A stretch of 64,000 nt of DNA from Candidatus Omnitrophota bacterium (GCA_016193175.1 JACPSR010000052.1:11226-75225), one strand, 5' to 3'. Positions 1 to 40,503 are shown, numbered from the stretch's first letter. The notes: generated by a model not told the origin, from the letters alone. A program made the numbers and translations.

Positions 1-250
1 TGCACCACGTCCTGGACAAGCGTTGGGAAGTTCTGGGGGTGCACACCCGGTATGGCCTCATCCACCTGGCGCTCAACCTCGACCGTCACCGCGACATCGC
101 TCCCTGGAATGTTCGGCCGTGCGACCTCCAGATCTAACAAGGTGAGTCTCGGGGCCCCACTCTTCTCAGCCTGCTCCCTGGCCCAGTCGAGTTGCACCTG
201 CAGCGCGTTGAGGTCCACCAACGCCAGCGGTGTTGCGGCAGGCTCGCGTG
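1..250 (-). repeat. Internal coding repeat (pairs with 3990..4240, ~92% identical; spacing ~3990 bp), encoding PLALxDLxALQVQLDWAREQAEKSGAPRxTLLDLEVARPNIPGSDV...VDEAIPGVHPQNF.TLVQDVV.
   Basis: + strand 1-250 against 3990-4240, aligned by eye. The shadow ORFs 52..579 and 4039..4452 start with near-identical peptides. Confidence 0.9.
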
Positions 251-3200: not shown

Positions 3201-6200
3201 GGCGCGGTCATACGCTGCCAGTCGCGACACGGCGGTGATTGCCTCATGAGCCGCACGATCAACCGCACCCGCACTCTCAGGAATGACGATTCCCTGCTGG
3301 GCGGCTACCTCGAGCAGTTGCTGATGGGCTTCGCGCTCGTTGAGCTGATCTCGATAGAGGCGGGCAAGTACGTTCAGCGCCGGCAGGTTCAGTTGACGCG
3401 GTGGGCGGGGATCGATCAGCCACGGATGTCCAACCACCCTCTTGATGTGTAGTTGCGTATCCGTCGGCAGCTCCTCGAACGGCCCTCCTAACGTTGCGAA
3501 CGCGCCTCGAAAGTCGGCAGGCAAATCAGCGTTCCGGAGGATCGCGCGAACGATGTCGTCAGGCGTGGCGTCGGCATCGATCCTAATCGAGATGGACACA
3601 ATGTTCCCCTGAACATCTCTTTTGTCCAGAGGGGGTGGGAACCAGACACCCGAGCCCAATTGCGTTGAACGATACAGCCGCACTGTCAGTGGTGCGCCCT
3701 CTCCTCCTCGACGCCAGACCTCAAGAGGCCCAACCGGTCGCTCTCTCGTGAGGTTGAGCGCTGTGGTGAACACGCGCTCGATATCAGCCGATGTCAAGCC
3801 CTGCGGGGCCGGCACTTCCCTCGGCGCGCCGCCGGCCACCGGGACAAGATGCGGGGCTTTGGCTCTCGCGAGTGTGAGGAAGGCGTCTCGAACATCTCCC
3901 GGGAGGCCTGGTTTCGCCAGGACGGTACGGACGATCGCTGTGGCGATCGCTTCGTCGGTTGCGTCGACGTTGGCGGTGGCGCGAACGCGCACCACGTCCT
4001 GAACAAGCGTTAGGAAGTTCTGGGGATGCACACCCGGTATGGCCTCATCCACCTGGCGCTTAACCTCAACCCTCACCGTGACATCGCTCCCTGGAATGTT
4101 CGGCCGCGCGACCTCCAGATCTAACAAGGTGGGTCTCGGGGCCCCACTCTTCTCAGCCTGCTCCCTGGCCCAGTCGAGTTGCACCTGCAGCGCGTCGAGG
4201 TCCGCCAACGCCAGTGGACGCTGCGGAACAGATGGTGTCGACCTGCCCGCCACTGGAATGGGCCGATTCAGGAGCAACTGCTGCACGGCAAGTGAGGTGA
4301 GCCACTCTTCACCTCGGGCAGGCACGGTGTGCCATCCTAATCTGGTGGGATACGCAAGGTTCTCCGCCGTATCATCGACAAACAAGATTTCACTCATCAA
4401 CCTAACGCCACTGGGCTGTTCCTGTCTGAGAATCGTCAGCGCCCGTGCGTAGAATGCTTCGGGGTTGTCTTTCAGGACTCCGACTTCTCCTGAGGTAATG
4501 ATGCGAAGACCACCCAGAAATGGAAAACGGCCTTGGAGGTGCCGGGCACGCTCTTGGTCCATATTGGTGAGGACCGCAAGACGATACCCGCGTTCCATCA
4601 ACGCCTGAACCAGTTTCGCCACGCCAGGGATTTCCTCATAGCTCTCGTAGAGCCAGCGCCGGAGCTGCTCGCGCTGCTGGGCTTCAGGCAGGGCGAAAAA
4701 TGTCCGTGCCTCGGTAGTGGCTGTTTCTTTCCCAGCAGTGATCCGTGTCAGCTCTCCAAGGACGTAACCCCAGTACGCATCAGCATCCAAGGTCCCCAAC
4801 CTGAGTTGCTTGGCCGGCTCACCTGTTTCAAGCCACTCTCTCACCGTCTCAGGCTCGACACTGAATGTCCGGCTGATCTGGTCAGCCGCCTTGCTCAGTC
4901 CGTTGGTGAGCAGCGTGCCTGTCAAATCGAACAGCACAGTCTGTACCGTCAGGAGCTGCCCGGCGGCTAACCGTTGCTGAAAGGCCTCCAGGCGTTCAAT
5001 CGCGTCTCGCACCTCAGGCCCTCCCTCTCTCACACCGTCCAGAGACCGAGCTTCGACCGTTTCACGTAACCTTGATGCCAGCGAAGGAATCCAGCCCACC
5101 ATGTTTCCAAAGACATCGCTCATGGAATGAAACAGCAAGAGCAAGCCCGATGCTTGGGCAGCGCGGAGGGCCTGATTGATCGCCCCGTCAAATGCCTCCC
5201 AGTTGCCTTGGAACTGACGCATAAGCGCTCCGAGCCGATCCCAATCAAGCTCCGCATCAGGCCGTTCGATCTCACGCGCCACTTCACCCAACCGTTCCTG
5301 AACTTGCTGAAGAGAGGGTTGCGTGAAGGGGTGGAATGTTGCCATGATCGCCTCGGCAATTCCCGCCTTGGCAGCGTGAAGGACCGCATCGGGCGTGGCG
5401 TCCGCATCGGCATAGAGGGCCACGATGTTCCCCGGGGCGTCCGCATGTCCCGGAAGGACTCGCACCCGCACCTCGGAACCCGAACGCTGTGAGCGATGCG
5501 CCCACACCGTCAGCGGCGGACCCTCTGTGCTCCGCCACACCTGCACCGTCGGACCGCTCTTGTCTTCCTGTCGTGTGAACTTCAGCTCTGTGGTTAACAC
5601 CTGATCAACGCTGCCCCAATCCTGTGGTGGTACCTCGGGAACCCCTGTCTCCGTCGGCGCGCCGGCGGCCGGCAGGCCGCCGCGGGCGGAGTCGGCCATG
5701 GAAGTGAGCAAGGGGACTTGCCGGACGTAGGCCTCGGCCATGTCTCGCTTGATGCCCAGACCAACCAAATGGTCGACAGCCGTCGCTCGATCGAGATCGC
5801 CGAGATAGACGAGCGCTAAGACTTCACGAACCGCTCGGTCGCTGTGGATCCTCGTGATCGTCCGACGGTCGTTCGCGGCCAGCGCATTGACCGGAGACGC
5901 CTGTGATACGTACGGTTCTGCTTCCCGCGCAGTGATCCCGAGGCCCTTGAGCTGTCCAATCGCGCCTGCTGGTGTCAGCTCGAGAAGGTAGCGTCGCGCC
6001 AGCACCTCGCGCACCGCGGGGTCCTTGTGGATGTTGCCGATGAACGCCCGGCGAGCGTTCGTCAAGCGCTCATACGCTGGCGCTACGATGGTAGGACTCG
6101 GCCCACGAGTGGCGGCTGAAGGAAGCACCTCGTCTGCAGTAGCACGCGGAAGGGTTTGGAGATTCGCATATCTTGGCTGGTTGATCGAAGATTCCGTCGC

Positions 6201-9200
6201 GTCGACAAGCGCGATATCGCCGCGTGCCGAAATCAAGAAAAAGCCATGCCCGCCTTCAGTGATTTCTCTCCGGCCTTCGAAGGGACCGAGAATGTTCCCT
6301 TCTGACGTCACGATGCTGACTCGGCCCTGCTCATTGACAATGAGGAGCTCTGCGCTGGCATCAGCTGAGGTGTCTGCGAGCACGATTGAATCAATGTAAC
6401 GGCGCTCCCCTTCTCCCAATAAGCGCGACAGCAGCTTCTTGCCTTCAGCAACACTCAAACGCGCTGCGCCCCTCTGATACGCTGGAACTCTCAAGTGCGG
6501 TTCCACCAGCGCGCCGCCGGCAGCGGGGAGGAGATGCAGAGCGTTCTTCTCTCTTACTAAGTTTGTGAAAGCGCCTCGAAAGTCGGCAGGCAAATCAGCG
6601 TTCCGGAGGATCGCGCGAACGATGTCGTCAGGCGTGGCGTCGGCATCGATCCTAATCGAGATGGACACAATATTCCCCATCACATCTTTTGCGTCCAGAG
6701 GGCGTGGGAACCAGACACCCGAGCCTAATCGCGTTGAACGATGCAGCCGCACTGTCAGTGGTGCGCCCTCTCCTCCTCGACGCCAGACCTCAAGAGGCCC
6801 AACCGGTCGCTCTCTCGTGAGGTTGAGTGCTGTGGTGAACACGCGCTCGATATCAGCCGATGTCAAGCCCTGCGGGGCCGGCACTTCCCTCGGCGCGGCG
6901 CCGGCCGGCGCAGGAGGAATCCATTGCACCGCCGCTGAGCCGACCGATAAATCGGGTACTTCAACCTGAGCATGCGACTTCGCAGCGACCAGACTATAAA
7001 AGCCTTTCGTCGTCTGCCCCGCCATCGCCCCGCGATTGCCCTCGCCCATGACGAGGATCACGTCGGCCGCTTCCCACGCCGCAAGGAACTCCGGCGCAGG
7101 CCGATACGGGTCAAGCGCTCGTGTCTGCGAGCCGGTTGAAATGACACGCAGGCGCGATCCGCCTCCACCCAAGAAGCCGCGCACCGGGTCTGCGTCCAAC
7201 CGCGCGCGCTCATCCGTCACCGTGCTGTCCACATCAGCCTCGACGGCTTTGGCCGCAATGGTGACTGTATGGCCCTGCTCCGTCAACCGCCGCTCCATCG
7301 CCGTGCGACCCACGCCCTCCACGATGTCGTTATCGACGAGAATCAAGACGTTCTTGGGACCTTCGCTCAGTTCCTGACTGAGCTGAGTGCGGTCATCGAT
7401 TGCCAGCGCCCTTGCCTCCTGCTGCTGCAAGAACGCCAGCATCTTGCGAGCGTACTCCCCCAACGCTGTCTCGCCGCCTGCCGCAGACCTCAGCAGATCG
7501 CTAGAGCCCGCGCTGTTCGCCAACGCGGCAATCCCCAGCACCCAGCGATCGCGCTGATCGGGAGCCAGTTCGTCATAGCGTTGCGCCAGCCACGGCATCA
7601 TCACGGCCACAGCCGTTTGCCGGGCTGAGGATTTGAACTGGGCGAGCGGCTCCCCCATGATCTCGCGGAGCGCGGCGTACCACAGCCCTTCAACTTCGCG
7701 TACCGTCCGTTGCTGGAGACGCCCCAGACGAGCCACGAGGGCACCTCTTGCCTGTTCGGCCGCTGACCGTGATTCTGGTTTGACATGTCCGATGGTTTCG
7801 ACGTAGAGATCGAGGTGGCGGAGCAATTGGTCGCGAATGGCCGGCTCGCTCACGGGTCCAGGCCCAAAGACGTAGGTGGCGGGATTCGCGATAATCCGTC
7901 CATCCGCCGGCCCGCGCGCCTCGAGTTGTACCACCAGCCGCTCCACGACAGCTTCAGGGGTAGCGGCCGGCTGAGACCGATCATCTCTCGGGGTGTAGCC
8001 GGCTTCGGGCTCGCCAAGCCCATCGTGACCTTTGCCCTCCACACCCTGCCGCTCCTGGAAGTACGGGGACTCGCCCGTCGGGGCAACGCCGTAGAGGTTC
8101 CTGAGGGCACGGAATTCAGGATCCGCATCTTGCCGGCGGATGAAGTCGGCGGCCTCGTCAAGATTGGAGAGCTCCTTGAAGTCGTGGAGCTCTTCTCCTT
8201 CGACCATGAAGAAACCGGTGTTCAGCTCGGGATACTGCGTGACATCCCCCGTCACGTACTGGGGGAGGAGGTAGCGGGTCAGCTCCTTCCCCTCTGCGTC
8301 CTTCACCACCCTCAGCTCAAGGTTGACATCGGCGCCTCGCTGCTGGAGGACCTCCCCGACCTCTTTGATCTTGGACAGACCGGAGAACTTGTTGTACGGG
8401 ATTCCTCCTTTGGCGGCGAGCTCCCTCTCCACCATGTCCTTGGTGGTAGGATCTGAGGTTGAGATGGTCTCGCCTAAGAATTTCGGCGCCAGCCGGGGAT
8501 CGGGTTTGGTGGTGATGAGCTTCTCCGGGTTCTCCGAATCCGGTCGTCCCTTATTCTCAACGAGCTCCACCAGGTAGCGGTGGCCCTTATTCAGCAGGCG
8601 CAGGCCAAGCGCCAACCAATCCACATCCACGGTGGCGCTGGTGAGCTTCGTCAGATCATTGATGCGGTACTGCTGGATGACCTCTCCGCCGCGCGCGAGG
8701 AGGGTCTCGGCGAGCAGGCCAGGGACGAGCATACGCTGTTTGTTGAGGAGCCGGTAGCCGCTATCCTCCTGCACAAAGACATGCATGGCGGGGTAGAGAT
8801 GCCCAGGCATCACAGGGTCGACGTCGATCGCCTGGACGATGACTCCCTCCTCCAACCGATAGGGGTGAAAGACCGGTACCGGCACGATGTAGAACCGCTC
8901 CGGGGAGAAACCATAGAATTGATTCGCGATGAGATCCTGGACGATCTCCCGCTCCATCCGGGCGCTCACATGGAAGATGATCTGTTGGTTCGCGACCGCT
9001 TGTTCCGGGGAGATCCCAAGCTCCAGATGCGCGCGGGCCAGCCGTTCAATCTCCAGCCGAAGCTGGAGCAACTGCCTGGGACCCCAGGGCAGCGTGTAGG
9101 GGCTACCGGCGAGATGCCCGACGTCCAGGAAGTATATGGCCCCCACCTCGCGATCAGTCACGTCTTTCCCATGCTTCCTGAGGTCCTCGCGCATCCGCCA

Positions 9201-12200
9201 GGCATCTCCGGCAGCTATGATCTGCCGCACGATCGCGCCCCGCAGTTGTTTCTGGATCGCGGCGGCCCGTTCTTCCGTGGTGAGATCGCGCTGGGAGCGC
9301 TCCCTGGGCAAGACGACGTCTGGCCCGGCCAACTCTAAATCCGTCGTGGGATTCAGGCCATATCGGCGAGCTAACGAGGAGATGAGCTTGAGGTCCGCGT
9401 CGGTCAAGTCCGCCATCGTCCGAATGGTTCGGCCGGTCTGGCGGGCGTACTCGGCAATCAGCTGGCCAACCCGCTGGCGCGTGAACGCCTCGGAACGGAC
9501 CGGGGTCCTGAAGGCTTCGGCCTCCGGGATGAGCGGCGCAGGCGGTTGGACGACTCCCACGCGCCCGATGAAGTCGCGCAAGGCGCCGGCCGCCTCCTCC
9601 GGCGTTCGGGTCCCAAGATATTTGACGGTCAGGGCGCCCGCGATAAATTGCTCAAGCACTTCCTCTAAGGACTCGCGCTCTGGGAAGCCGCCTCGAGCCA
9701 GCCGACGATGCACCGCCTGTAGCAGGATCTCTTGATTCGCCGGGGTGATCGTCGTGACGCTCAAGGTATCGATCAACCTCCAGAGGCTCGTGGCCTGTTC
9801 AATCTCGGTGACGGTCGCCTGGTCGAGGCGGTTGGCCGCCTCCTCACGCAACCGCTGGAGCATGACCTGATCCTGTGCGCGATCGCCAGTCCCCTCCACC
9901 TCAAAGTAGACCCGATTGAGCGGTTCGGTCCCTGAGGCTCGAATCTTATAGCTGATGAGCTTGCCCGTCTGTGGGTTGCGAAAGACAAAGAGGAGTTTAT
10001 CGAAATAGGTCCCTCCGAATTCCGGCCGAATGGCCACCAGTGGAAATCCCGCGATCGCAGTCAGCCGCCCCTGGGCGTAGTCATCCAGGTATCCACTGAT
10101 CAACTGCTTCTTGGCCCAGGGGCTGGCGGTCACATCGTCTCGCGCGGCTTCGACATAGCCCAGCTCTTGCTCGATATCCCGGATGATCTGGGTGATGCTC
10201 TTGCGTTCTTTAGCCTGGATGGCTGCAATGAGCAGGCCGGTCAGCAAGCCGTCTTTATCCGGCATCAAAAGCGGTCGCGTCGGGCCAGGCACCTTGACCC
10301 CGATGCTGAACCCGCCGCTCTCTTCATAGCCGATGGCCACGTCGGCGCCTTTGGCCAGCGCGTCCATCATCGGAGGGCCAACGTACTTAAACCCCACGTC
10401 CACCTGGTAGTCCACCTGGTCACGCGTCACGGCATCAAGAGCCTCGTTGGCGATGAGCCGACGGTAAAAGGGATGCAGGAGTTCATCGTTCGTGCCTGAG
10501 GGCGCAACATCCCGCGGACGCAGAATCCGATCGCGATAGCGAGGATCTCGCAACAAGCCCTGGAGGACGACCTCGGTCCACAGGGTTGACGGACCGCTTT
10601 TCACGACAGCTACGCGCCTGCCGCGCTGTTGTTCGGAGCGAATCACCCGATCAATGAGCGCGGTCATGAATCGGTTCGGCGTCTCATACCGATAGTCGTT
10701 GCTGGCGGGGTCCCACCCAAAGACCCCAATCCGATCACCGTCGGTATCATTGCCTTGAATCGAGATGGGTCGGGAGGGCCTGGCCAGCTCCAGGCTCCCC
10801 GCCTTGCGCATAAACGGCTCCTCGGAATTCGAGGGGATCGTCCCCAAGAGATCAGGGTTCGTGTCTCGTCGCAGTTCAACCACTCCCTCAGGCAATCCGA
10901 TGAGGTTCTTAAACAGCGCGACCATCTCTCCATGGGCTGAGCCGTAGAGATCGTCATGGGCATACCGATGTTGACGGTAAAACTCGCGCATCTGATCCGT
11001 GATGTCAGGCCCAAAGAGCGCCGTGAGCACCCCCCGGAGGTAGGCGGCATACGCCTGACGGTATTCCTCGGTGCGGACCAGCCTGAAGGAGGGGTGGCTT
11101 GCCAAACTTCTTTGGATCGTCGCATCATCCGCCTCGGCTTCTGGGAGAGGTGCTCTCAGGACTTTCAGGTCATTCAAGATCTGCCCGATGCGGTCCGTGA
11201 CCGACGTGGGGGCGGGCGCGCCGGAGGGTGGCGAGTAGCGGATCCCATACCACGGCAGTGGATTGTGGCTCGGGGTGATGTTGATCACGCCGGCGAGATC
11301 CTCTCCTACTTGGGACAACGCCCAGTAGACGGCGGGTCCCGTTGCGGTCGCTTTGTCAAAGAGGTGGACCCGGAATCCGGCACGGAGCAGAACCGCCGCC
11401 GTTAACCGTGCGACCGCATCCCCATCGCGACGGGTGTCATACGTGACGACCATTGTCTGCTTGATGGGAGAGGCCTCCTTGGCATAGCGCGCGATCGCCT
11501 CAACGGTGTAGGCGGCCTCGCGGCGGTTGAAGTCGATTCCCCACCTCGCCCGCACCCCGCTTGTGCCAAACCGCTGATACTTTTGGGCGTAGACGGCGTC
11601 AATGAGCCGGCGAACACCCGCTTCCGTCGTCCGGAACTTCAGTTCATAGAGCGCATCGTAGACCTGACCAGCCAGCAGGGCTCGGAAGGGGAGGTAGTTG
11701 TTCGGCTCCTTCGGATCCAGTGTCCCGCGCACCGCCTCCCAGACCAACGGCATGACCTCATCGCGGAGGTACCCGCGCTCCCTCAGCACGCCAAACTCCG
11801 GCCTCTGGAAGAGACCCTCCAGGGTTCGCCCAATCGCTTCCCGCAGGCCACGCATCTGCTGGAAGATCTCACGCCGCTCTTCTTCAGAGACCTTCGGCTT
11901 TTCGCCTCGAGCCTCGTAACGATACGGGCCCGCTTCCACGAGCCACAGCAAGAGGCCGGCAGCCAATTCCGTGATCAGCTCGTGCGACAGGTGCCCTGCG
12001 GCGAGGCGCTGATGCACTTCACTGAGGAAGCTATGGGCATTGTCCAAGGCGCGTGCCCGCGTGGCTGGATCTGACGCGTCCACGAACGCTCGCTTCCCCG
12101 TGATGAAGCGGTTGGCGAACTCCGATGCTGGAACTGCGCCTGCGCCGGCCGCGACACCACTCTGAGCGTCGCGGAGGCGACCCACGACGAGGCGGTCACC

Positions 12201-15200
12201 CGCTTGACGGATTGAGATGCGAGGCTCCTTCGCCTTCGCCACGGCCCACAGGTCGCGCACACTCTCGCCAATCCGTTTCCTCACATCTTTCCGGATATCC
12301 TCATGCAGCGCTTCGCGTTTCGCCTTGCGCTGCTCATTCTCGGCAGGCGACAGTTCAGGATCCGGCAAACTTGCAAGGATCTCGCGGACGCGCTTGCGCT
12401 CATGGTCGGAGACGATGGCCCCACCGGCGCTCGCCACCGAGTCGTGAAAGACGATCACGCCACGCTCGAAGAGCGTCTTGTCGGCCGCTTCTTCGATAGG
12501 ACCGTTGGCCTCCTCGACAATGAGGGTGGCCTGGACAGCCCCGACGTTCTTGGTGGTGATCGTGTTCTCCAGCGCCGCAAGAATCAAGATATCGGTCTTG
12601 CGTGAGAGGACCGCCTCGTTCCCTGCCTGCGTTCCCTCAACGACGACACTCCCGGGAATGCGCGATGCCGCCGTGATCACAGAACGCCGTTCGTCTTTGG
12701 CTTGCTTGATGAGTTCGACCTCTTCTCTCGTGAAGCCACCGACCTTGATCAGGGCGCCTCCTGTGTCGTTGATGGCCTCGACCCTTCGCTCGCGCTCCAC
12801 ATTTTCGATCAGTGCAAAGCGGGCGGCATTCCCCGCCCCGATGATCACGACGGTTGGCACATCGGGGTTGCCCCCCCGGTCCCTGATGGCTTGGCGAATG
12901 TCTTCAATCTTCAGCGCCGCATCAATGGCGTAGGTGCCACCCAGGCCTGTGGCTTCGGTGCGGACGGCAATACCACCAAGCTCGATGGGTTTGGTTGAGA
13001 AGGTGCCCAGGGCTTTGACGATATCCGGCAGATCACGCTGTTCACGAATCGCCTTCTGCCCTTCGCGGATGACGGCCCGGACGTAGGGCAGCGGGCCGAG
13101 GGAGATCTCTTCTTCATTGCGCTTGATGATGACAGGCTCACTGAACTCTGCCTGGGTGGGTTGGACGGTCGGACGGCCCGCAGCGGTCTCACGCTGGGTG
13201 AAGGTGTGCAGGTAGCCTTCGGTGAGCCAGATCATTTCTTGCTCGCCGGTGTTGACGTCTGGGGCGGGGCCGTCGATGCCGATGCCGACGATGGGGGCAG
13301 GATCCCTCTCACGCGTGATGGTGCTGGGTGCGCCCCAGGCTGAACCGATCGCGAGAAAGAGCTCTCGTTGAGCCTCGCGTGGGAATTCTGGTCGAGGATC
13401 AGACGCGCTCGTTTTCTTCAAGACCCATGTCTTGACGGCAACGACATTCCCGCCGGCATCCTTCTGGTAGCCCAGCAGCGCAACGGTTCCCTTGCCGCCA
13501 CCGGTATCTAGACCCACAGAAGCCAGCTTCAGCGTCATCCCCTTCGCGAGGCCCTGCGCTTCTTCTCTCATCCACTGCCGAAGATCGCGCACGAGCTTGG
13601 TCAGCTCCTCCTTTGGTGGAGAATGTTCTAGACGTGAGAGAGCGGCCAAGCGCGACTTCAGCGTTTCGCCCCATGCATCGGAGCCCGCATCGAGCTCACG
13701 GATGCCGCCCTGGAACGGGCCGATGCGGTTGTTATCCTGGGCGCGGACGTGTGGGAAGAACCAGGTTTGGCCATCCACTGGGAGACTCACTTCACCCTCA
13801 TGGATGGCTTGCGTGCCAACGAGCTGCTGGATCAGCTCTGGCGGGAGTTCCTCCGCTTGGGCTGCCGCTTGGGCTGCCGCGCGCATCCGCTCCTGCATCT
13901 TCGTCAGCAGCGGGTTCTGCGATGGCTCGGCAGCCCCTCGCGCGAGCGCCAGGTCCTTGATGAGGGTGATCGCCGAGGCGGCTCGCTGCCACTGGTCATC
14001 CGCCAAGACGATGAGGATCGCGTCCTGGCCATCAATCACCATCGTCCGAGAGGTATCAAATACCGCCTGTCTGCGACCCCGGACTGCAGCCGTCACGAAC
14101 GCTTCACCGGTTTCAAGGTGCGGCAGGCCGCGCACGGCATCCTGCACGACCTGATTCACCTCAGCGCTATCTTTCATCGGCTTGCCGGTCGAGATCAAAA
14201 GGGCGTAGACATCTCCTGAAGTGACAGGAACGCTGACGGCTTCCACCTCGGAATGAGGTGAATCAGGAGTTCCTGCAGGGCTTGGGATGTCTTGCTCAGC
14301 TAATACTTGTTCGAAGGTAGCTGAGAGGGCTACCCCCCTGCGCTTCAAGTCCTCCTGTGTCAACGGCACGATGTTCTGTACCGCAGACTCTTTTCGGTAG
14401 GTGTCGAGCGCCGGCTGATCACGGTTAATCGCCAGATTCAGAGCAAGCGTGACGTGTTTCGTCCCATACTTCTGGTGGATGGCCTGTAGAACCGGCAAGA
14501 GGCTGGCCTCGAGCGGCGACGCAGGGGTGTAGAGGCTTCGTTCGTCATCCACGGGGCGGGTCGGGAGCGTCCGAACAGCTTCCTTCGGCTGCTGCTGACG
14601 CAGATCGATGGTCGTGACGCCTTCCTTCTGATAGAACGGGACGTCTTTGTTGTAGCCAAGGTCAATGACAAAGTCGACCTCAGGCAGTGTGGAGAGATCT
14701 GTTTCATTGCGCACGCTGAAGTTCAGTTGGTCTCCAAGACTCACGACGTAGTCGCCCGCCGTGGTCTTCCCGTGATTGATCGGGACGTCCAAGTGCCCAT
14801 AGTCGGAGTGGGTCTTCAAGCCCTCCGCATACGCGCCTGCCGCAGATGCCGGCATCCCATTGACCCACACCAGCTCGATATCCTGATCCCGCATGCGGGT
14901 CAGGTCATAGAAGATGAGCTGATCGAGTCGGCCGGCATTCTCGGCAATGCCGTTGATCCCCACCCGGACCTTGCGGGTCAGGCGATGCGCGTGGGCTTGA
15001 CGCTTTGCCTTAAGGGCTTGGGCCAACTGACGCGCCGTGCGGACGATCTCCTCGGCTGGGACAGGCGGGGCGGCCGCTGCGGCCGCTCGTCCCCTGCGAC
15101 GCCTGCCGCCTCCACCAACCGCCTCGGGGGGCGCTGTAGGCTGCTGGAGCTTCCCGGCAGCTTCCAAGATATGCAGACTTTCAGCCAGGTCATTGACCCG

Positions 15201-18200
15201 CGCCACATACCCCCATTCGTTGTCATACCAGGGAGAGACGACGACGTACTTCCCGACCGGCCGATCATCGGTGTCGGTGAGCTCGCGCCCGCGCTCATCG
15301 AAGACGCGGATGCGGTCTTCATCAATGATGCTGCTGATTTCACTCTGTTTGACCAAGCCCATGGTCACGTTCTTGGTGACTTGAAGCATCCGGGGATCCT
15401 TCGCGGCCTTGTCTTTGAAGGCCTGGACGACCGCCTTTCTCGTCGCCGGGATTCGCAATGTGGCCCGATACACCAGCATAGACACCGTCGCGGTGGGCAC
15501 GCGGATCGCCAGCCCATTGTGCGGACCGGGGGCGCTCCCGTCGATCGTCTCGATCATCTGCATGGTCGAGATCGACGAAGCCGCTCCGGTCGTGGTCAAG
15601 CCGCTCTCGCGCGTCGCTGGAAAGGCCCGGCTCGGATCCCCCGAGGCGAAGCTCTGCACCGGCGACTGCGTGTTCGTCACGGAGTGGATGGTGATCATCT
15701 CCCCTCGCTCCACCCCAAAGGCGTGATTCAGCGCGGCGACAACCGTTGCCAGCCCGTTGGTGGTGCAGGACGCCACGGAGTGAATGCGCGGATCGATGAG
15801 CTCCATGAGGTCATCCACCGTGGCCCCCAGCACCACCATGGGGGTCTGCGCATCGCCGGGTGGGTTGGTCATCTGCACCTTGGCCGCGCCGTTGTTGATG
15901 TGCTTCTTGATCGCCCCGGCCATGGTATAGGCTTCGCGATCCCCCGAGGAGTCAACGATGTACAGCCGGTTGTGGCCGCCGGGACCCTTGACGTGGGGGG
16001 CGTCCTCCCATTTCTTCCAGGGGAGGACCTGACGCTCGTTATCCACCAGCATGATCCACCCGCCGATCGAGACCCAGTCTTGTCGATAGCGTGTGCCGTT
16101 GATCTTGAGAAAGTGGCCGTACTTGATCTCAAGGCCTTCAAACAAGCGGCCATACGTTGAGTCGCTCTCCGCCATCTTTTGGGCAAGGCGCGCCAACGGT
16201 TCTGAGCCGACCCCGTTCAGATGGATCACGTTCATCCCTCCGCGCCGCAAGGCTTGCGCCAGGTCAAGGAATCCAACGCGTCCCAGGCCGTTAATGGCCG
16301 TCGGGATGGGGTTGGCCAGCACCCGATTCACAAACGCTTCCTGCTCCGCTCGCGTCGTGAACGAGAGACGCCCCGACTTGACCAACCGCTCAACCAACTG
16401 CTCGGTGGGTTTCCGGCGTTCTTCATTCGGAACGAACTGTTCCACTGTCCCGCCAGCTTGCACGGGGATCGCATCCACGAGGTTAGCCTCGGTCAAGGGA
16501 GCGGTCAACGCCGTCAGAGGCGGCGCCTGAAGCTGCGGGCCGGCGACGGTCCCCGACAGCTCCTCGATGCGGCGTTTGAGCTCCGGGGAGGTGGGCGCGG
16601 CTTCTTGCGCAATCGTCAGGTAATGCTGCGCCGTGAACGGGTCATCCTTGCCCTCGGTCCTGGCCAGGTGGAGGGCCAGCTCTGCCGCCTGGTTGCGCGT
16701 GTCAGGATGCAGCTCGTGCGCGTTGTAGGTGTTGAGGAGGAAGCGCAGGAGTTGCAACGCATTCCGATCGTCGTTGTCCGATGGCACCGTGATGGCATCC
16801 TGTTCGAGCTCACTCAGCTCAACCGCTTGCAGACCGTCTTGCTGGATGCGGCGGGCACGGAAGTACCCTCGCGCCGCCTCCACGCGCCGACGGTGTGTCG
16901 GATGGCGGTTGTAGGCCAGCGCATCCGCGAAGGCTTCTTCGGCTTGCTCAAAGAGCCCCAGGTCTCCATACGCCACACCGAGCCGATACGCGGCGTAGGC
17001 CCGCTCGCCGTCCGACCGAGCCGCGCGCACCTGGGCGCGCCAGACGCTGATGTCGGTCTCGATAGTGAACCGGTAGGTTCGGTGGAGGCCGGAGGAGGAC
17101 ACCTGCAGTTGCTCGAGGGTCAGCTCGCCGGTCTTGGGGTTGACCTCGGGCGCGGCCATCGCCCGGCCATCGACGTCCACCCACGGCACCGGACTGACCG
17201 CGGTGAACCACGTCGCAGCAGGGCCTCGCACGAGGTGCTTGGCCTCGTCCGACGAGTCAGAGTCGTACTCGGTCTCCCACGAGACCGCCTTCGTCCGACG
17301 CGCCAGCATGGCGGCAAGCAGCGCGATCTTCCGGCGGTCCTCTTGAAACAGCGCATCGGACAACCCGCGACGGGTCAGGGACGCCCGATGCTCCTGAAGA
17401 AGCGCGGTGAGCGCCGCGGCGATCTCCTGCTCTTTCTGAGCCACTGCGTGCTGTGGGTGTTGCATGATCGCCACGACCCGAGGATGGGTCCACACCGTCT
17501 CATCCTGCGCCAGCTCGATCATCTCATCGAGCGTGTAGCGCTGATAGTCGGAGGGTTCGAAGGAACCTTTCTGGGCCTCGCTCCAGACCCTGGCGGCGGC
17601 CAGGCGCGCCTTATACGACACCTCCAGCCCTGCGGCCATCGCCGCCTTGATGGCCATCTCGGGCGAGGCGCCGATCCCCCACAGGAGATGCAGCCGGTTT
17701 CCGTTCGATGTCACATCCTTCGCCGCCACGGAGAGCACCGGAAGGACGTCGCCGTCTCGGAACGTGTAGAGACCGCCGATCTCAAGAAGGCGTCGGCCGA
17801 GGAACCTGATCGGCGGTAGTTTCTTCAATTTCAGCGGCTGGCCGGTCTCGATGGCCGCCGCGACGGCCTCCTGCAGCCCGGTCCATGCCTGCTCGTCGAT
17901 CGCCCGGCCCCACAGTTGCTCGAGGCCGGCTCTCAGTTGAACGCGATCCTCTTGCACCAAGCCGCCCAGCGCCTTCCACACCGCGTCAAACTGCTTCTCC
18001 CTTCCGAACTTGGCTTCCCATGCGGCCTGCAAGAACGGGCGGTTGCGGTCTCGGTAGAGCGCCGCGCTGCGGAGGTTCTTTGCGCTCACGCCCACCGCCT
18101 TGGCGACGGATTCCAAGTTCTTCGCAGGCGGCGCGTTCAAGTCGACCCTGCGCGTCGCTCCCTTCGGCGCGAAGACATACTGGCCGTAGATATCGACGGC

Positions 18201-21200
18201 GCGCAGCGCCCCGCTCGGCGTCGTCACCGACGCCACGGAGTTGGCCCCCGGCACCCCTGGCGCTCCGATCCGGGCGGTCACCTCGAGCGGGTCGACCGAT
18301 AACGACACGCTGAGCCTGGTGATGGCGAATCGATTGAGGCTCCGGCTGGCTCGCCCCAGATGGCGGTCACGGCCCAGGGTGGGCGCTTCATCCCGCCGTC
18401 CTTCCGCGTTGTCGACCCGGGCGTCCACATCGATGGCGCCAAGGCCCGCGGCGATCCCCTCGGTGGTGCGCCGATCTGCGCCCCGCTTCACTGATTCACG
18501 ATTCGCATCGTGGGAGAGATCCGGCAGGATGCTCATGACGGCGGCGGCTGTGGGCGCTCCCATGCCGGCGAGCGTCTCGAACCGGCTCGGCGCGGCGGCG
18601 CGCGACGGGCCAGCAAGGTTCGTCTCGGCCGCCTCCACGCGCCTGATCCCGACGACGCGCGGATTGACGTGGCGCATGACCCGCTCGGTCCCCAGGCGCA
18701 CTTTTTCACGCTCAGCCTCATCCAACGCGCCGCTTTGCCTGAGGGCTTCGACCACAAGGAGTGTAAAGTCAACCTCAAAGGCGCCTGCCATCTGCCTGAG
18801 CAACCCTCGGGGATTTTCCTTGATCGCCGATTCCAACTCGTCGCTCGGCAAAAGCTGTGCGAAGACTGCCGGGTAGTTGCGCGGTTCGATCGCTCCATTG
18901 GCCACTCGTTGGACCAAGGCCTTCGCAGGAGCGGCCAGCCACCGAAGGCGACTCTCCGAGGTCAGTCGATTGACTCTCGTGCGGGTCAAGTAGTCTGAAA
19001 CGTTCAGGGGGCGGGAAGGAACAGGCAGGAGCTGCTCAAGTAGGATCAGCGCCTCGTGCTTCACCAAGTCGCTGTTCGCGTATAAGGCGAACCACACCAG
19101 CTCCGCCCGGACCCTCGGAAGAACGTCGCTGCCAGCTGGCGCTCTGGAGGCAGCCGCGGCGATGATCCGCAAGAGGCGCGCTTGATCTTCCCAGGATGGC
19201 GCGCCCAACGCCCTGGCTCGAAGCGTCTCGATCGTCTTCGTCGTCACCCGATCGAACTGAGCAAGCAGCCCCACCATGATGTCCAGAACGCCCGGATCCG
19301 ACTCCGTCCCGAGCCGTTGCTCAACACGGCCTTGCACCTCCTGCGCGAGCGGTTGATCCTTCAGGAGCACGGCGATCTCAGCCAAAAGCGCGACGGCCAC
19401 CCGTCGGACGCGCGGGTGGCCATGGGTCAATCCGGCCTGATCGTTGGAGGAGGCCAATAACGCCCGCGCGAGGTTCTCGATCCGTTCTCTGGGAAGACCC
19501 TTGACCGCAGCCAGCAGGACATCGAACCGATCGTTGTACTGGTCATCGGACGCGATCACCAACAGCGCATCGTCAAGGGCGGCACGCCATCCGTTCTCTC
19601 GTAACGCGGCGGCCAATCCGTTCGCTTCGACAAGCGGTTGGACCTCCGGCTGGGGGGAAGGGTATGCCGCCAGCGCAGCGGCTCTGCCTGCCTCGCTCAG
19701 TGCAGGCTTCACAGCCAGGATGGCGCTGGTCAACGCTCCGGTCCGGAGGCTCGTGGAGCCGAACATCAGCACGGACAGCTCAGGGAGCCTCGCGTAGTCG
19801 TAGACGTTCTTGGCATCCATCGCCCCGCCGTAGCCGAGCTCGATCGCTTGCGCGACGTCCGAGCCGAACTGCTCCGCGAGCAGGCGGCGGATGGCGCCGA
19901 GCACGTCATTGACGTCGGCCGGGGAGAGGCCCTTCTTCTTTTCTGGGGCTTTGTTGGGGTCTGCCGCATTGGAGAGCTCAAAGACGATCTTGATCTTCTG
20001 GAGAGCAGACGGGGAGAGGCCGGCGAGACGCGAGAGGAGCTGCCGGCGGAGCACGGTTTCGCGCTGGTCCCAGTCGGCGTCATTGACGTAGACCACGAGG
20101 ATGGGAGCGCGGCCGGAATCGAGGATGACGGTGAGACGTTCACGCACTTGGGAATCGCTTTCTCGGAGCTCTTGATGACCAACGACGACGTACGGCGGAT
20201 CCCTGCCGGCTGGAAGCAGGTGGGGATTCTGCAAACCGAGCTGAACCCCCTGAGGTGCTGCGAGCGGCCGGCCCGCGCCAAGGTCGGCCACGGACGGCAT
20301 CGGCGGCACCACCACGATCGGGCCAGGCGCGCCACGTTGGACGTCCGTCAATGCGCTCAGGTAGGCTCTGGGCTCGCCGGGAAGCTCGAACCGGTTCTCG
20401 CGCTGCCAGAGGTGCACGATGATCGCACTTGGATGCTGCCGGCGGATGCGGCGCACCTGCTCCAGGGCGGCGGCGTCGGTTCCAGCCGCCACGACCCCAG
20501 GGGTCGCTCCGGCCCACGCGCCGCTCAAACCGGCACCGGCCTCCGTCTCTGGAAGCGCCACGATGACGCGCCCCAGGTTGTCGTCGCTGACGCCATCGAG
20601 CAAGCCGGCGCTCGGCATCGCTCCGGACGAGGCGAGCACAATCGGCCGAATCCCGTTGTCGAGGCTGGCCTTGATCCGGGCGTTGCCCTGGCTCACATCC
20701 GCCCCATCGACCAGCGCGTACTGCACGCCGGCGTCTTTCAACATCCTGGCTGACACCGTGCCGGTGAACCGGCCGGACTCCTGCCGAACCTCTGGAGCGC
20801 CGACCGCGATTCCGACGCGGGCCCATGCCTCGCGCTGCAGGGCGGCCTCAGGCGTCTCGGCCAACAGGTGCGCCCCCGGCAACACGATCACCTCCACCGG
20901 CAGCCCTGCGACGGCCACGCCGAGGCGCTCGAGCTGCCGCTGAACAGGTTGATCCGCCGAATTGGCTTTATGGTTGGCGATGAACGTCAGGCGCTTGCGC
21001 GGAAGCGGCGGGATGCCCAATGCCGTTGCCGCCTGGTCACCCAACGCATCGACCACGACCGGCGGGAGCGGCGTGTTGCCCAATCGCCCGCCCGGCATGG
21101 CGTTGATCGTCTCTTCCACGAGGTCGGAGACCCTGCGGCCCCCCACCTCGGTCGTGGGAGCCAGGGCCCGACGGTAGCGCCTCATGCTCCAGGTGCGGTT

Positions 21201-24200
21201 TGTGTCCTGCTCGCTGTCCGTCCCAAAGCCAAGCTGGATCACGCTGATGAGGTGCTCGCGATCCGCTTCCGACAATGTCCCAAAGGCCCCCTCACGGAAC
21301 GGGAGGGCAAAATTCTTCATGTTGTCCTTGAACGCCTTCACGACCTCCTCCGTTGTCGCCTTCAGCGATTCGTCCACCGCCGTGAACGCCCGGAGATGAG
21401 CGAAGATGGCTTCCTGCGTAGCGGGAGGCAACGCCTTGAATTTCTCAAAGACCGCCTTGTTCTGGGCGAGCACCCAGCCGAAGATCCTCCGCTGTATCGC
21501 GTCCGGCAGCCCGAGGAACAGGAGCCACTGCCACTGGGTAGCGATGTTGGCTTTGGCGAACAACTGCCACAGCGCGCGCCCATGGGGATCCTCTTCGATT
21601 GGCGCTTCAATGTCCCGGGGATCTTCCCCTGAGGTGCCGTGCTTCATGAGCTCTGTTCTGATGGGCATCTGGGAGCCGTTGACCGAGATCGTCGTGCCTT
21701 CCAGCGCGGTAAAGATCTTCGCGGCGGAGGTTGCGACCATGTTGTAGTACGCTCGCGCATCAGCCGCAAGGCCTCGCGGGGCGCTGGCAACAGCGAGGAA
21801 ATCAGGCTGAGCCAATCTGAGGATTTCCTCTTCACTCAGGTGCGCATACCGCGGATCCGTGTTCCATCGGTCGGCCCGACGTCTTGCCACTTCCTCGATA
21901 AACAGGCGCGCTTCAATCGGCGTCGTCGCACGCTTCTTTCCATCCTCCATGACCCCGGCCTCGCCGACATCCGTCTCCAGCGATGCCCAAGGCGGCAACA
22001 GGGCGCTCAACTCCCCGACAACTTCCACGACGCGCTTGTAGCCGGCGGCCGCGATCTCTGGTTGGAGGGCTTGTGCCTCAGTGTCTTTCGACCTCCCCTG
22101 GAGCGCCATTTCCACAATCAAGTCGCTCTCCGCTTGAGTGAGGGGTGGCTTGCTGAGCATGCGGCGTAACTCGTTGGATGATCTGATCACTGTCTCCTCA
22201 ATCAGCGCTCGTGCCGCAGCCTCGTCATACAACTGGGTCGCATAGATCGCGAAGGAGGTGTAGCCGGCCCGCAGCAACCGTGGGATGAGCTGCTGCATTC
22301 GCTGAATTTCCAGCTCCTGCTCGGCTTCGGTCTTCTTCTTCTCGACCCGCAGGTTGTCCGCATGGAGCGCCCACAGGATGGCGCGATTGGCCCTGGCAAA
22401 TTCCTCCGCGGCGATCCGCCTGGCGGTTTCGGCAAACTCCTCGTACGCGTTCCAGGCATAGCCGGTCAGCGCGCCGGATTTCTCCGCGTCGCCTTCCGTC
22501 CCGGCAATCTGGAGGATGAGCGGTTGGTTCGCCTCCAGCGCATCCCGGAACGCGGCCCGAATGATCTCTTCGGTGCGCCCGGTATTCGTCACCGTCGTGG
22601 AGACGATCTGATGCGCGCGCAAGCCCTCCCGGATCAGCCGGGCGCTGACCGGAAGCACGGCCAGACGCTGCGTGATTTTTTCTCCCAACCCCGGCAGCCG
22701 TCCCAATCGCTCAAGGAGGCGCTGCTGGACGTTCGGGTCGGTGTTCGTTTTTAGCAACTCAAGAAATCGTGGGAGCTCCTGCCGCAGCGTGTCATCGTCC
22801 CAGCGTTCAGGACTGGGGGTCAGTGGGGCGGCGGGAGGCGTGGGAACCAGCGCGCTTCGCTCACGCCGGTGGATCTCGCCCAGGCGAGCCAACAGGCCGT
22901 TTGCCTCCGCCACGTTCGTCACGGACGTCCGGATGACATACCCCTGAGGCCGAGCCTCCGGCGCCAGCGCGGCCAGCTCCATTATCTGCTCGGCGCTTGC
23001 GCTGACCCCGTAGACGCTCACAAAAGAGGCAAGGCGCTCGCCATAGTCGCCCCTGAGCGCGTGACGGATGATGCTGATTCCCTCACCGACTTGCTCGGCC
23101 GTAGCGCCAGGGCTCGGGTCATAGACCGGGACCGTCAGCAACACCTCGTCATCGCGCAACCCCCGCAGGAGGCTGCGCAGTTGAAACTGAACCAGCTCAG
23201 GTGTCAGGCCGGCGCGTCGCTGCTCCTCGGTGACACCGAGCATGAGGAGCGGATGCCTGCCCCGCTCCACCACGGCCTTCACGATCCGATTGGCCGCGTC
23301 AAGATCGCCACCGAGGTCGGCGGGGTTCACCACCGCATCCCGAAGCTCATCCGGCAGACTCGTCACAGCCTTCGGATCCCTGAGATGTTGCCATCCGACA
23401 CGAATGCCACGAGGCAGTTGAGCGAATGACCCTCCGAATAAGGGGCGGTTGAGATTGATCAAGACCCGGCGATGCCCAAGCGCTCGAAGCTCCTCAGCCA
23501 ATCGGAGAAACTGCTCAGGGGGCACCGGATGGGGCGACTCGACAAGCACGGTCTTTCCAGCGTTTCCCTGGAAGAGGCGACGGTACGCGGCCTGGCCGAC
23601 CTGCTGCGGAGTCATGACGATTCCATCAAACGTCTTCAAGAGCCCAGCGAGGGTGTCCGTCTCAAGCGAACCGTAGGCCGATCCGTCAACGATCACGGGG
23701 ATGTCTGAGATCTTCAGTGTTCGTCGGACCCACAAGCCATGCGTCGTTCTCCAGGCCTCCAGCGCATCGGCGATCATCCCCCGCCTGCTCGTGAGTCGTT
23801 CTTCATCGGCATCGGGGGGAATCCGTGATTCGTCGCGGATGACAATCCGCGAGAGCTCCTCAGGCCTGACGCCGGCCAGCAACCCGGCCACCTCCTGCTT
23901 GAGGCCAATCTCCTGTTCGTCGCCGTTCAACGTGACGGCGCGAAGCCCCACCACGACGCTCGCTTGGCGATCCAAGGCCACGCGGATGGCCTGGTGTCTG
24001 GAGGGAAGCGAATCCGACGGATCCGCGCTGACGACTACCGGAGCTTCGAGGGCCCCACCCGAGAAGCCCTCGATAGCCTCCTTAACTCGCTGTGAAGCGA
24101 TCTCTTCCGTCGTCGGCGCCACAATCACCGTCACATGGTCCGGGGCGCCCAGCCTGGCAAGTTCTGATGCCAACAGCCCCCCTCCAGTGAAGACCACCGT

Positions 24201-38798: not shown

Positions 38799-38802
38799 CC
38801 TC

Positions 38803-40395: not shown

Positions 40396-40447
40396 GGCTT
40401 GCTGCCTGCTACGGTTACCGCGCCACGACCATCCTAATATTAAACAC

Positions 40448-40476
40448 ATAATAATAGATTTCAAAAACATTGTCAA
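40448..40476 (-). promoter_or_regulatory. Sigma70-like promoter TTGACA-N17-TATTAT, in the only AT-rich island of the window. It would drive the 530-aa gene and the downstream megaprotein gene.
   Basis: Minus strand reads ...aattgcTTGACAatgtttttgaaatctatTATTATgtgtttaatattaggatgg. The -35 sits at 40476..40471 and the -10 at 40453..40448 with a 17-nt spacer. It lies between the stop of the 5401-aa gene (40504) and the ATG at 40395, in an otherwise >60% GC window. Confidence 0.5.
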
Positions 40477-40486
40477 GCAATTTTTT

Positions 40487-40502
40487 ATTAGTGGCTTAGT
40501 GG
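40487..40502 (-). repeat. Tandem direct 8-mer GCCACTAA x2 immediately 3' of the 5401-aa gene stop.
   Basis: + strand ttagtggc ttagtggc at 40487-40502. The TAA stop at 40504-40506 is the start of the first copy on the minus strand. No clear hairpin terminator accompanies it. Confidence 0.6.
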
Positions 40503-40503
40503 C

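Follow-up and report, generated by a model that had tools for sequence, protein, structure and literature searches.

A predicted active/dead pair of glyceraldehyde-3-phosphate dehydrogenase modules beside a long-form amino-acid dehydrogenase module in a giant multi-enzyme protein of Candidatus Omnitrophota

Giant open reading frames (ORFs) are found across the classes of Omnitrophota (Seymour et al., 2023). Some of the encoded proteins have been described as 'Archaeovorins', in which HEAT and TPR repeats are joined by glycosyl transferases and, in fewer cases, by domains of triosephosphate isomerase (TIM), glucose-6-phosphate isomerase (GPI), fructose-1,6-bisphosphatase (FBPase), phosphoglucomutase/phosphomannomutase (PGM/PMM), aldolase, and pyruvate phosphate dikinase (PPDK) (West-Roberts et al., 2023; bioRxiv 10.1101/2023.11.21.568195). 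The TIM, GPI, FBPase, PGM, and fructose-bisphosphate aldolase (FBA) domains of such giants are predicted to be extracellular, and post-translational cleavage of the giants has been proposed (West-Roberts et al., 2023). More recently, a 'multi-enzyme metabolic cluster' class was distinguished among 916 long Omnitrophota proteins in a 2026 preprint, the supplement of which holds no list of the Pfam accessions searched (10.64898/2026.06.07.730766). Modules of glyceraldehyde-3-phosphate dehydrogenase (GAPDH), phosphoglycerate kinase (PGK), and the glutamate dehydrogenase (GDH) family go unmentioned in the text of the 2023 and 2026 preprints. Giant Omnitrophota proteins are therefore known yet functionally opaque, and the locus considered here provides a concrete, testable unit of about 1,350 residues within one of them. 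It lies in a 64,000-nucleotide stretch of Candidatus Omnitrophota DNA (GCA_016193175.1, JACPSR010000052.1:11226-75225), hereafter the window, and consists of an apparently active GAPDH that possibly accepts NADP(H) (GAPDH-1), a conserved and apparently dead partner (GAPDH-2), and a distinct GDH-type dehydrogenase (the ELFV module, after the Glu/Leu/Phe/Val dehydrogenases), all encoded by the giant gene ORF-D. This unit bears on three questions about the giants: whether they carry out reactions of the pathway, in what direction these would run, and which cofactor they would use.

The initial annotation had described the three dehydrogenase-like segments as a cluster of modules; they are not separate genes but consecutive modules inside a single minus-strand frame. 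Six-frame translation of 12200-16500 placed all of the peptides quoted in that annotation in frame -1 of the minus strand, between 12228 and 16304. In a window-wide scan, the minus-strand frame 3..38909 contained no stop over 38.9 kb (12,969 codons) and ran off the window. ORF-D (3..38798, minus strand) spans at least 12,932 codons with its 3′ end beyond the window, and its start is likely the ATG at 38798, which lies 4 nt past the stop of the neighbouring ORF-C in the context TAAGAGGATG. The G+C content at first, second, and third codon positions is about 0.70/0.46/0.75 in each 2-kb block of ORF-D, and thus the entire frame looks coding. Moreover, six independent Logan assemblies match the first ~3,300 codons at 100% identity, and window positions 28803-42597 (13.8 kb) are 100% identical to six Logan contigs. 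Since the frame is stop-free over 38.9 kb, its codon-position composition is uniform, and its flank is identical in six assemblies, the GAPDH-1, GAPDH-2, and ELFV segments are one gene, forming an internal part of a giant multi-enzyme protein, and three separate genes are rejected. Separate genes, an assembly artefact, or a decaying pseudogene would be a scarcely credible explanation of the locus. The giant gene is truncated by the window, 95%-identical internal repeats in its C-terminal part could mislead assemblers, and no independent assembly was found to contain the three-module region itself. Against this stand not only the open, uniformly coding frame and the adjacent 13.8 kb shared with six other assemblies but also independent Omnitrophota proteins with the same fused modules, one of which covers GAPDH-1, the linker, and GAPDH-2 in one alignment stretch.

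The Pfam order of ORF-D begins with a signal-like N-terminus, a DnaJ domain, about 3,300 unrecognised residues, PGK, and a cupin GPI. It continues through TIM-like modules, a GlpX FBPase, a TPR repeat, GAPDH-1, GAPDH-2, and the ELFV module, and ends with PGM/PMM, an ARMT1-like phosphatase, a HAD hydrolase, and HEAT repeats. With at least 10,000 amino acids tiled by many enzyme Pfam domains and with HEAT/TPR scaffolding, ORF-D fits the description of a giant multi-enzyme protein. As in Archaeovorins and multi-enzyme clusters, a gene exceeding 10,000 codons has other giant genes beside it on one strand, HEAT and TPR repeats occur together with long unannotated stretches bearing transmembrane (TM) helices, the TIM, GPI, FBPase, and PGM/PMM domains are highly divergent, PPDK-type domains are found in the neighbouring ORF-B, and the nearest named relatives are all from Omnitrophota. 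The Archaeovorin definition of West-Roberts et al. also asks for a length of at least 30,000 amino acids, of which ORF-D supplies at least 12,932 within the window. The 64-kb window, outside which the 3′ part of ORF-D lies, yielded no GT5/GT1, methyltransferase, NUDIX, peptidase, SecA_DEAD, or C39 domain (E <0.01). ORF-D is an Omnitrophota-type giant multi-enzyme protein of an already reported kind, either Archaeovorin-like or a multi-enzyme metabolic cluster; the new details are a conserved active/dead GAPDH tandem and a long-form GDH clade, both undescribed in those systems. The window contains no taxonomic marker gene. A eukaryotic or viral origin was rejected, since the GlpX enzyme, the presence of sigma-70 region 4 and of a promoter of sigma-70 type, the ATGA coupling, and the Omnitrophota relatives speak against it.

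Consecutive pathway enzymes on one polypeptide are also known from bifunctional glycolytic fusions, such as the PGK-TIM of Thermotoga and the TPI-GAPDH of stramenopiles. A further case is provided by P0001/P0002 (Gp_dh_N, Gp_dh_C, PGK), two GAPDH-PGK fusions that were the only matches when the whole 1,331-aa region was used in a word-indexed protein search. These fusions join two ordinary, highly conserved enzymes in ~770 aa, whereas the window protein strings together at least 10 very divergent modules over more than 12,900 aa behind a signal-like N-terminus.

GAPDH-1 (15153..16304, minus strand; open-frame aa 7536-7919) is a divergent class-I GAPDH. The full GAPDH proposed initially is borne out by the Pfam profile Gp_dh_C (58.5 bits; cut-off 24.4), by TIGR01534 (E 1.8e-47), and by the best PDB GAPDH (E 1e-29, about 30% identity), while Gp_dh_N scores 31.2 bits, slightly below its cut-off of 31.7. 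At 162 bits against a TIGR01534 equivalog cut-off of 367, GAPDH-1 is a GAPDH homologue and not an equivalog. It retains the motifs SVASCTTNG with the equivalent of Cys149 (TGC, 15765-15767), TIHSVTN with that of His176 (CAC, 15684-15686), and AIRVPT with the anion-site Arg231. From these retained residues, GAPDH-1 is probably an active phosphorylating GAPDH.

The residues expected to set coenzyme specificity, which the initial annotation had singled out for inspection, prove informative. Asp32 of GAPDH hydrogen-bonds the 2′-hydroxyl of the NAD adenosine ribose (PMC3728087). At this site, after strand beta-2, GAPDH-1 reads HLNGVG, with Gly (16212-16214) and no NAD-specifying Asp. The N-D at the site is invariant in eight ordinary GAPDHs, and Asp32 is absent from every giant-protein GAPDH module aligned. 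Classical NADP-accepting class-I GAPDHs are the gluconeogenic GapB of Bacillus and the engineered D32G/L187A/P188S mutant (PDB 1dbv), whose title appears among the Foldseek matches of GAPDH-2. Like NADP(H)-using class-I GAPDHs, GAPDH-1 combines a non-acidic residue at position 32 with an intact Cys and His; unlike them, it shows only ~30% identity at best to ordinary GAPDHs, and its N-domain carries two insertions.

The second module, GAPDH-2 (13935..14972, minus strand; aa 7980-8325), has a full-length GAPDH fold from which the catalytic residues have been lost. It matches TIGR01534 at E 1.1e-7 over model positions 1-212 and PDB GAPDHs at E 7e-4 over query positions 147-341. When a three-member family profile of GAPDH-2 was compared with canonical GAPDHs by hhalign, the probability was 99.1% (E 1.6e-18, 309 columns). 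An AlphaFold2 (AF2) model built from a 20-row alignment reached a predicted local distance difference test (pLDDT) score of 84 and a predicted template modelling score (pTM) of 0.84, and the top Foldseek matches of this model were exclusively erythrose-4-phosphate dehydrogenase (E4PDH)/GAPDH structures (E 8e-25, TM-score 0.74-0.81). GAPDH-2 is a complete GAPDH-like module with N- and C-domains. The initial annotation had proposed a partial second GAPDH among three Rossmann NAD(P) modules: the GAPDH-like character stands on profile and fold searches, but the segment is not partial, and with the glycine-rich loop of GAPDH-2 disrupted, three Rossmann NAD(P) modules are too many. As the middle module is predicted to be dead, two candidate redox enzymes are left among the three segments. 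This GxGxxG loop has degenerated to GINGIAENAGRL, with an insertion. Cys149 is replaced by Pro (PASPLE; CCG, 14514-14516), His176 by Leu (LALNLA), and RVP by SVP (AVSVPV) with loss of Arg231, and the WYDNEWGY motif has degenerated to LADDQWQR. Judged by these substitutions, GAPDH-2 is predicted to be a catalytically dead pseudo-enzyme. It is nonetheless conserved like its active neighbour. GAPDH-2 is 45-47% identical to P0003/P0153 (MDP6686096.1, Candidatus Omnitrophota), a relative comprising a GAPDH-1 tail, linker, and pseudo-GAPDH, and shares with it the Cys-to-Pro change, the relative reading PASPMET and ADDQWGRAA; identity of the dead copy to P0153 is 47%, and that of the GAPDH-1 C-domain to P0004, a fragment overlapping P0153, is 44%. 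Direct BLASTP of GAPDH-1 against GAPDH-2 gave a non-significant E of 1.2 at 19% identity, such that their homology became visible only with profiles.

Between the two GAPDH modules lies a linker of 60 residues (14973..15152, minus strand), the G/R/A/P low-complexity basic core of which occupies 15045-15143. The Gly/Arg/Ala-rich linker noted initially is thus present and contains GGGGRRRRGRAAAAAAPPVP, the sole G/R/A/P-rich tract of the whole ORF-D protein. A short segment following the basic core is similar in the orthologue P0153, and the linkers of all tandem GAPDH pairs measure roughly 45-65 residues. A polybasic run separates the active and dead GAPDH both in the window (RRRRGR) and in P0153 (KSKKKKE, within a K/E-rich linker of similar length), and in P0012 KEKKKKKKG precedes the second GAPDH copy; the sequence around these basic runs is not conserved. 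The polybasic run could be a site of cleavage or of membrane or nucleic-acid binding.

Cleavage would make of ORF-D a polyprotein, cut at linkers such as RRRRGR into conventional, normally oligomerising enzymes, with the dead GAPDH as a leftover or a regulatory subunit. This is distinctly unlikely. Basic tracts do occur in the linkers of the two closest GAPDH/pseudo-GAPDH pairs and in P0012, but their sequence is not conserved and P0005 and P0017 lack them. West-Roberts et al. have proposed cleavage of giants, and ORF-C faintly resembles the Tiki/erythromycin-esterase hydrolase superfamily, although this resemblance is not significant (E 0.08-0.5) and Pfam detected no protease domain in the window. 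Cleavage would also leave the 47%-identity conservation of the dead copy unexplained.

The third module (12228..13850, minus strand; aa 8354-8894) is a long-form GDH-family amino-acid dehydrogenase. Its assignment to the Glu/Leu/Phe/Val dehydrogenases was made initially and holds, as both Pfam profiles exceed their cut-offs (ELFV_dehydrog, 102.6 bits against 23.4; ELFV_dehydrog_N, 44.7 against 25.3); of the profile hidden Markov models (HMMs) suggested for checking, these two and Gp_dh_C are above threshold and Gp_dh_N, at 31.2 against 31.7, is not. The best PDB and NCBIfam matches are archaeal-type GDHs. In common with the hexameric archaeal/Thermotoga-type GDHs (PDB 1gtm, 8kao; GdhA_Arch), the module keeps Lys113 (MTLK; 13527-13529), Lys125 (GGGKGTV; 13491-13493), Asp165 (PAPDVNT; 13257-13259), EEANGP, and the GxGxxA loop in the form GAGNAA. 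Unlike them, it has three insertions, reaches 109 bits against a cut-off of 750, and is embedded in a giant chain in which formation of a hexamer is doubtful. It also reads GPFQGGIR where GDHs have GPxKGGxR, so that Gln (13710-13712) replaces Lys89, the binder of the glutamate gamma-carboxylate. Because Lys89 is Gln, the module is not called a glutamate dehydrogenase. The theme of amino-acid/2-oxoacid redox chemistry drawn in the initial annotation is compatible with the retained catalytic Lys and Asp, but the Lys that binds the side chain of glutamate is absent. The three insertions (about 45 aa; about 20 aa, or about 30 aa in the window; and about 55-70 aa) are in common with P0006, P0007, P0009, P0012, P0013, and P0020, and ordinary GDHs are without them. 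By these shared insertions, the module belongs to a clade of long-form ELFV dehydrogenases.

Relatives of the unit were collected by an exhaustive phmmer search with query residues 7690-8889, which returned 3,067 proteins at E ≤0.001. All named relatives (P0153, P0007, P0044, and the cluster of P0003) are from Candidatus Omnitrophota. Tandem GAPDH pairs occur in P0005 (2,089 aa; signal peptide, GAPDH-GAPDH-PGK-GAPDH-GAPDH), P0017 (1,455 aa; GAPDH-GAPDH-HEAT), P0012 (6,205 aa; GDH, PGK, GAPDH, Cys-less GAPDH), P0044 (MBU0881234.1, Omnitrophota; head, GAPDH, Cys-less GAPDH-like module, PGK), and P0153, and the second copy lacks the Cys in P0012, P0044, and P0153. P0044 aligns with query positions 16-644 as one stretch, covering the GAPDH-1 C-domain, linker, and GAPDH-2. 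In the phmmer search the GDH-type module gave one continuous alignment with each of dozens of proteins (558-6,205 aa), six of which were aligned in detail. Among the partners of long-form GDH modules are PGK and GAPDH in P0012, a PGM-like region in P0136, hexokinase in P0112, and a malate-synthase barrel in P0007. Two further relatives, P0129 (TIM-PGK-GAPDH-FBPase_3) and P0145 (TIM-GAPDH-FBPase_3), include the gluconeogenic FBP aldolase/phosphatase. In P0020 and P0013, the GDH-type module is joined to CsrA (carbon storage regulator) domains, and P0020 also contains a response regulator and a helix-turn-helix (HTH) domain, which hints at regulatory modules embedded in these giant proteins.

Other searches were less productive. 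The poor yield of the word-indexed protein search is probably due to the dominance of low-complexity words; it found no match for the pseudo-GAPDH plus GDH, and none for the pseudo-GAPDH alignment, although P0003 is in the same collection. A scan of a genome collection returned 80 ordinary GAPDH loci of ~30% identity, drawn by the universal WYDNEWGY motif. In metagenomes, patterns from the pseudo-GAPDH alignment matched 264 stretches, none of them related, and the 120 matches of the pattern ADDQW.RAA were chance hits, among which tblastn revealed no relative.

Taken as a whole, the three-module segment is read here, with somewhat more confidence than doubt, as part of a giant membrane-associated multi-enzyme protein in which an active GAPDH, a dead partner, and a dehydrogenase balancing NAD(P)(H) work in the direction of hexose phosphate. 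ORF-D strings together divergent sugar-phosphate enzymes, in the order PGK, GPI, TIM, FBPase, GAPDH, and PGM, followed by phosphatases and HEAT repeats. Without Asp32, GAPDH-1 would be able to use NADP(H). GAPDH-2 may serve as an obligatory structural partner of GAPDH-1, the two being predicted to form an intramolecular pseudo-dimer across the ~60-residue linker; a partner role is suggested for the dead copy because GAPDH must oligomerise to be active, whereas free tetramerisation is out of reach for a module buried in a 13,000-residue chain. The ELFV module would oxidise an amino acid or reduce a 2-oxoacid, thereby balancing the NAD(P)(H) used in the GAPDH step, and the segment would constitute a self-contained redox unit of the pathway. 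The pathway itself would run from 3-phosphoglycerate to hexose phosphate; this direction is favoured by the FBP aldolase/phosphatase, a strictly gluconeogenic enzyme that occurs together with TIM, PGK, and GAPDH in relatives. The pairing of an active with a dead copy points to a possible general design rule by which enzymes that must oligomerise are placed in one giant chain.

Several observations weigh against this interpretation. Recycling of NAD(P)H for GAPDH by the GDH module, as put forward in the initial annotation, is plausible given the retained catalytic residues, the missing Asp32, and the co-occurrence of GDH, PGK, and GAPDH in relatives, but the adjacency of GAPDH and GDH is absent from every relative examined, and in P0044 it is PGK that follows the dead GAPDH. 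All three modules are far under equivalog level, for example at 162 bits against 367 for GAPDH-1 with TIGR01534 and 108.8 bits against 750 for the ELFV module with GdhA_Arch. The ~18% identity between GAPDH-1 and GAPDH-2 implies that their duplication is ancient. Aldolase, enolase, and phosphoglycerate mutase were not detected in the window by Pfam or in PDB searches of part of ORF-D. The strongest objection comes from the N-termini: Sec-signal-like sequences are found in ORF-D and in 27 of 44 long relatives, and a further strong TM helix is lacking in relatives, for example in P0005, P0129, and P0012. Export is therefore predicted, to a place without ATP or NAD(P).

Such export would mean that the modules are not enzymes of the cell's own metabolism, but are located at the cell coat or transferred to prey, where they would bind sugar phosphates or prey surface molecules, like the surface 'moonlighting' GAPDH of other bacteria, or process metabolites of lysed prey. 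This is a serious although unlikely alternative. Along with the signal-like N-termini, the strong divergence of the modules and the loss of catalysis in one GAPDH copy are in its favour, as is the extracellular prediction that West-Roberts et al. made for the TIM, GPI, FBPase, PGM, and FBA domains. However, the Cys and His of GAPDH-1 and the Lys and Asp of the GDH module are kept across divergent relatives, the module set forms a coherent pathway, and PGK, GAPDH, and GDH require ATP and NAD(P), which are unexpected outside the cytoplasm. The signal-like segment is followed by a J domain, and J domains normally partner cytoplasmic Hsp70. Topology does not settle the matter, since a simple hydropathy scan found TM-like segments in ORF-D only up to residue ~3,463, which places all of the enzyme modules in one compartment, and the positive-inside rule gives contradictory indications as to which compartment this is. 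Very doubtful is a combination of the two ideas, in which a cofactor-balanced piece of central carbon metabolism operates outside the cytoplasm, either at the cell coat or within or against prey; it would be built as one exported mega-polypeptide with tandem active/dead pairs (GAPDH and possibly TIM), its amino-acid dehydrogenase would recycle NAD(P)H, and metabolites from prey would be channelled into hexose phosphates or glucan. The conflict between signal-like N-termini and modules dependent on ATP and NAD(P) bears on where the giants act during predation.

The remaining modules of ORF-D, all on the minus strand, are distributed along its length. At its start (38154-38798), a signal-peptide-like sequence (…AVPSAFA/WGQ) is followed within 150 residues by the DnaJ (J) domain (38154..38336; 51 bits), an odd pairing if the N-terminus is exported. 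PGK (26913..28082) scores 341 bits with its Pfam profile, and the cupin-type GPI (26079..26621) scores 106 bits. The TIM-like region extends overall over ~19725-23290 (open-frame aa ~5207-6395). Its best module (19725..20402; Pfam TIM, 79.7 bits) has GHQE and FE at the positions of His95 and Glu165, and at least two weak, degenerate TIM-like stretches with weak PDB TIM matches lie upstream (open-frame aa ~5207-5314 and ~5976-6160). Together, TIM and GAPDH hint that obligate-oligomer enzymes occur in ORF-D as tandem good and degenerate copies. The best-matching stretch of the GlpX-type FBPase is at 18024..18488 (FBPase_glpX, 85.9 bits). Beyond the three-module segment, Pfam detected domains I, III, and IV of PGM/PMM (9867..11576), the ARMT1-like damage-control phosphatase (6951..7649), the HAD-family hydrolase (4359..4943), and the HEAT repeats (1038..1934). 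The ARMT1-like and HAD modules that follow PGM/PMM possibly add metabolite-repair or sugar-phosphate phosphatase functions to the chain. PDB searches of the unannotated parts of ORF-D covered the N-terminal 3,340 aa and aa 4280-7300; the N-terminal 3,340 aa had no PDB sequence match, and the unannotated stretches of aa 4280-7300 gave only one further weak TIM-like stretch. Two pairs of 95%-identical direct repeats lie in the C-terminal part, one at 3488-3787 and 6557-6856 (300 nt) and the other at 2-230 and 3989-4217 (at least 229 nt). Both pairs encode repeated segments of ~100 aa, the result of recent internal duplication or, alternatively, a possible source of misassembly.

Three further minus-strand genes share the window with ORF-D: ORF-A (>2,430 aa), ORF-B (about 5,400 aa), and ORF-C (38803..40395; 530 aa). 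The last encodes a 'head' protein with a signal/TM-like N-terminus, which over its full length matches, by BLASTP, the N-terminal ~500 aa in 13 long multi-enzyme relatives. In these relatives the head is thus continuous with the multi-enzyme chain, whereas here it forms a separate gene just upstream of ORF-D. Residues Q76, H79, E107, and G471-G472-H474 are invariant. In an AF2 model of ORF-C (pLDDT 80.9), three of the seven top Foldseek matches were erythromycin-esterase/BcR135 structures, which were not significant, and the head profile had no significant match in PDB sequences or Pfam, the Tiki/ChaN match in Pfam being faint (E 0.055). The exact ORF-C protein is present on Logan contigs of seven runs in the range SRR12113385-425, and six of these contigs are the ones identical to 28803-42597. 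One of the runs in that range, SRR12113421, has been tied to agricultural groundwater in Modesto, California, by the paper linking run and site, and the remaining runs SRR12113385-425 are inferred from their numbering to belong to the same project. A sigma-70-type promoter-like site (40448-40476, minus strand; TTGACA, 17 nt, TATTAT; 11 of 12 consensus matches) lies inside the AT-rich 108-nt gap between ORF-B and ORF-C, which suggests that ORF-C and ORF-D may form their own transcription unit.

ORF-A and ORF-B (40507-63998, minus strand) contain sigma-70 region-4 HTH segments, many TM helices, TPR arrays, and an AAA_12 helicase end. The stop of ORF-A and the likely start of ORF-B overlap as ATGA (56706-56709, minus strand), with AAGGA 11 nt upstream, while an alternative GTG start of ORF-B would overlap ORF-A by 118 nt. 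The ATGA arrangement suggests that these two giant genes may be translationally coupled. ORF-B itself carries sigma-70 region 4, TPR, PEP-utiliser (PEP-utiliser_N), and PPDK_N segments, of which PEP-utiliser_N and PPDK_N would extend the pathway theme to pyruvate and phosphoenolpyruvate (PEP).

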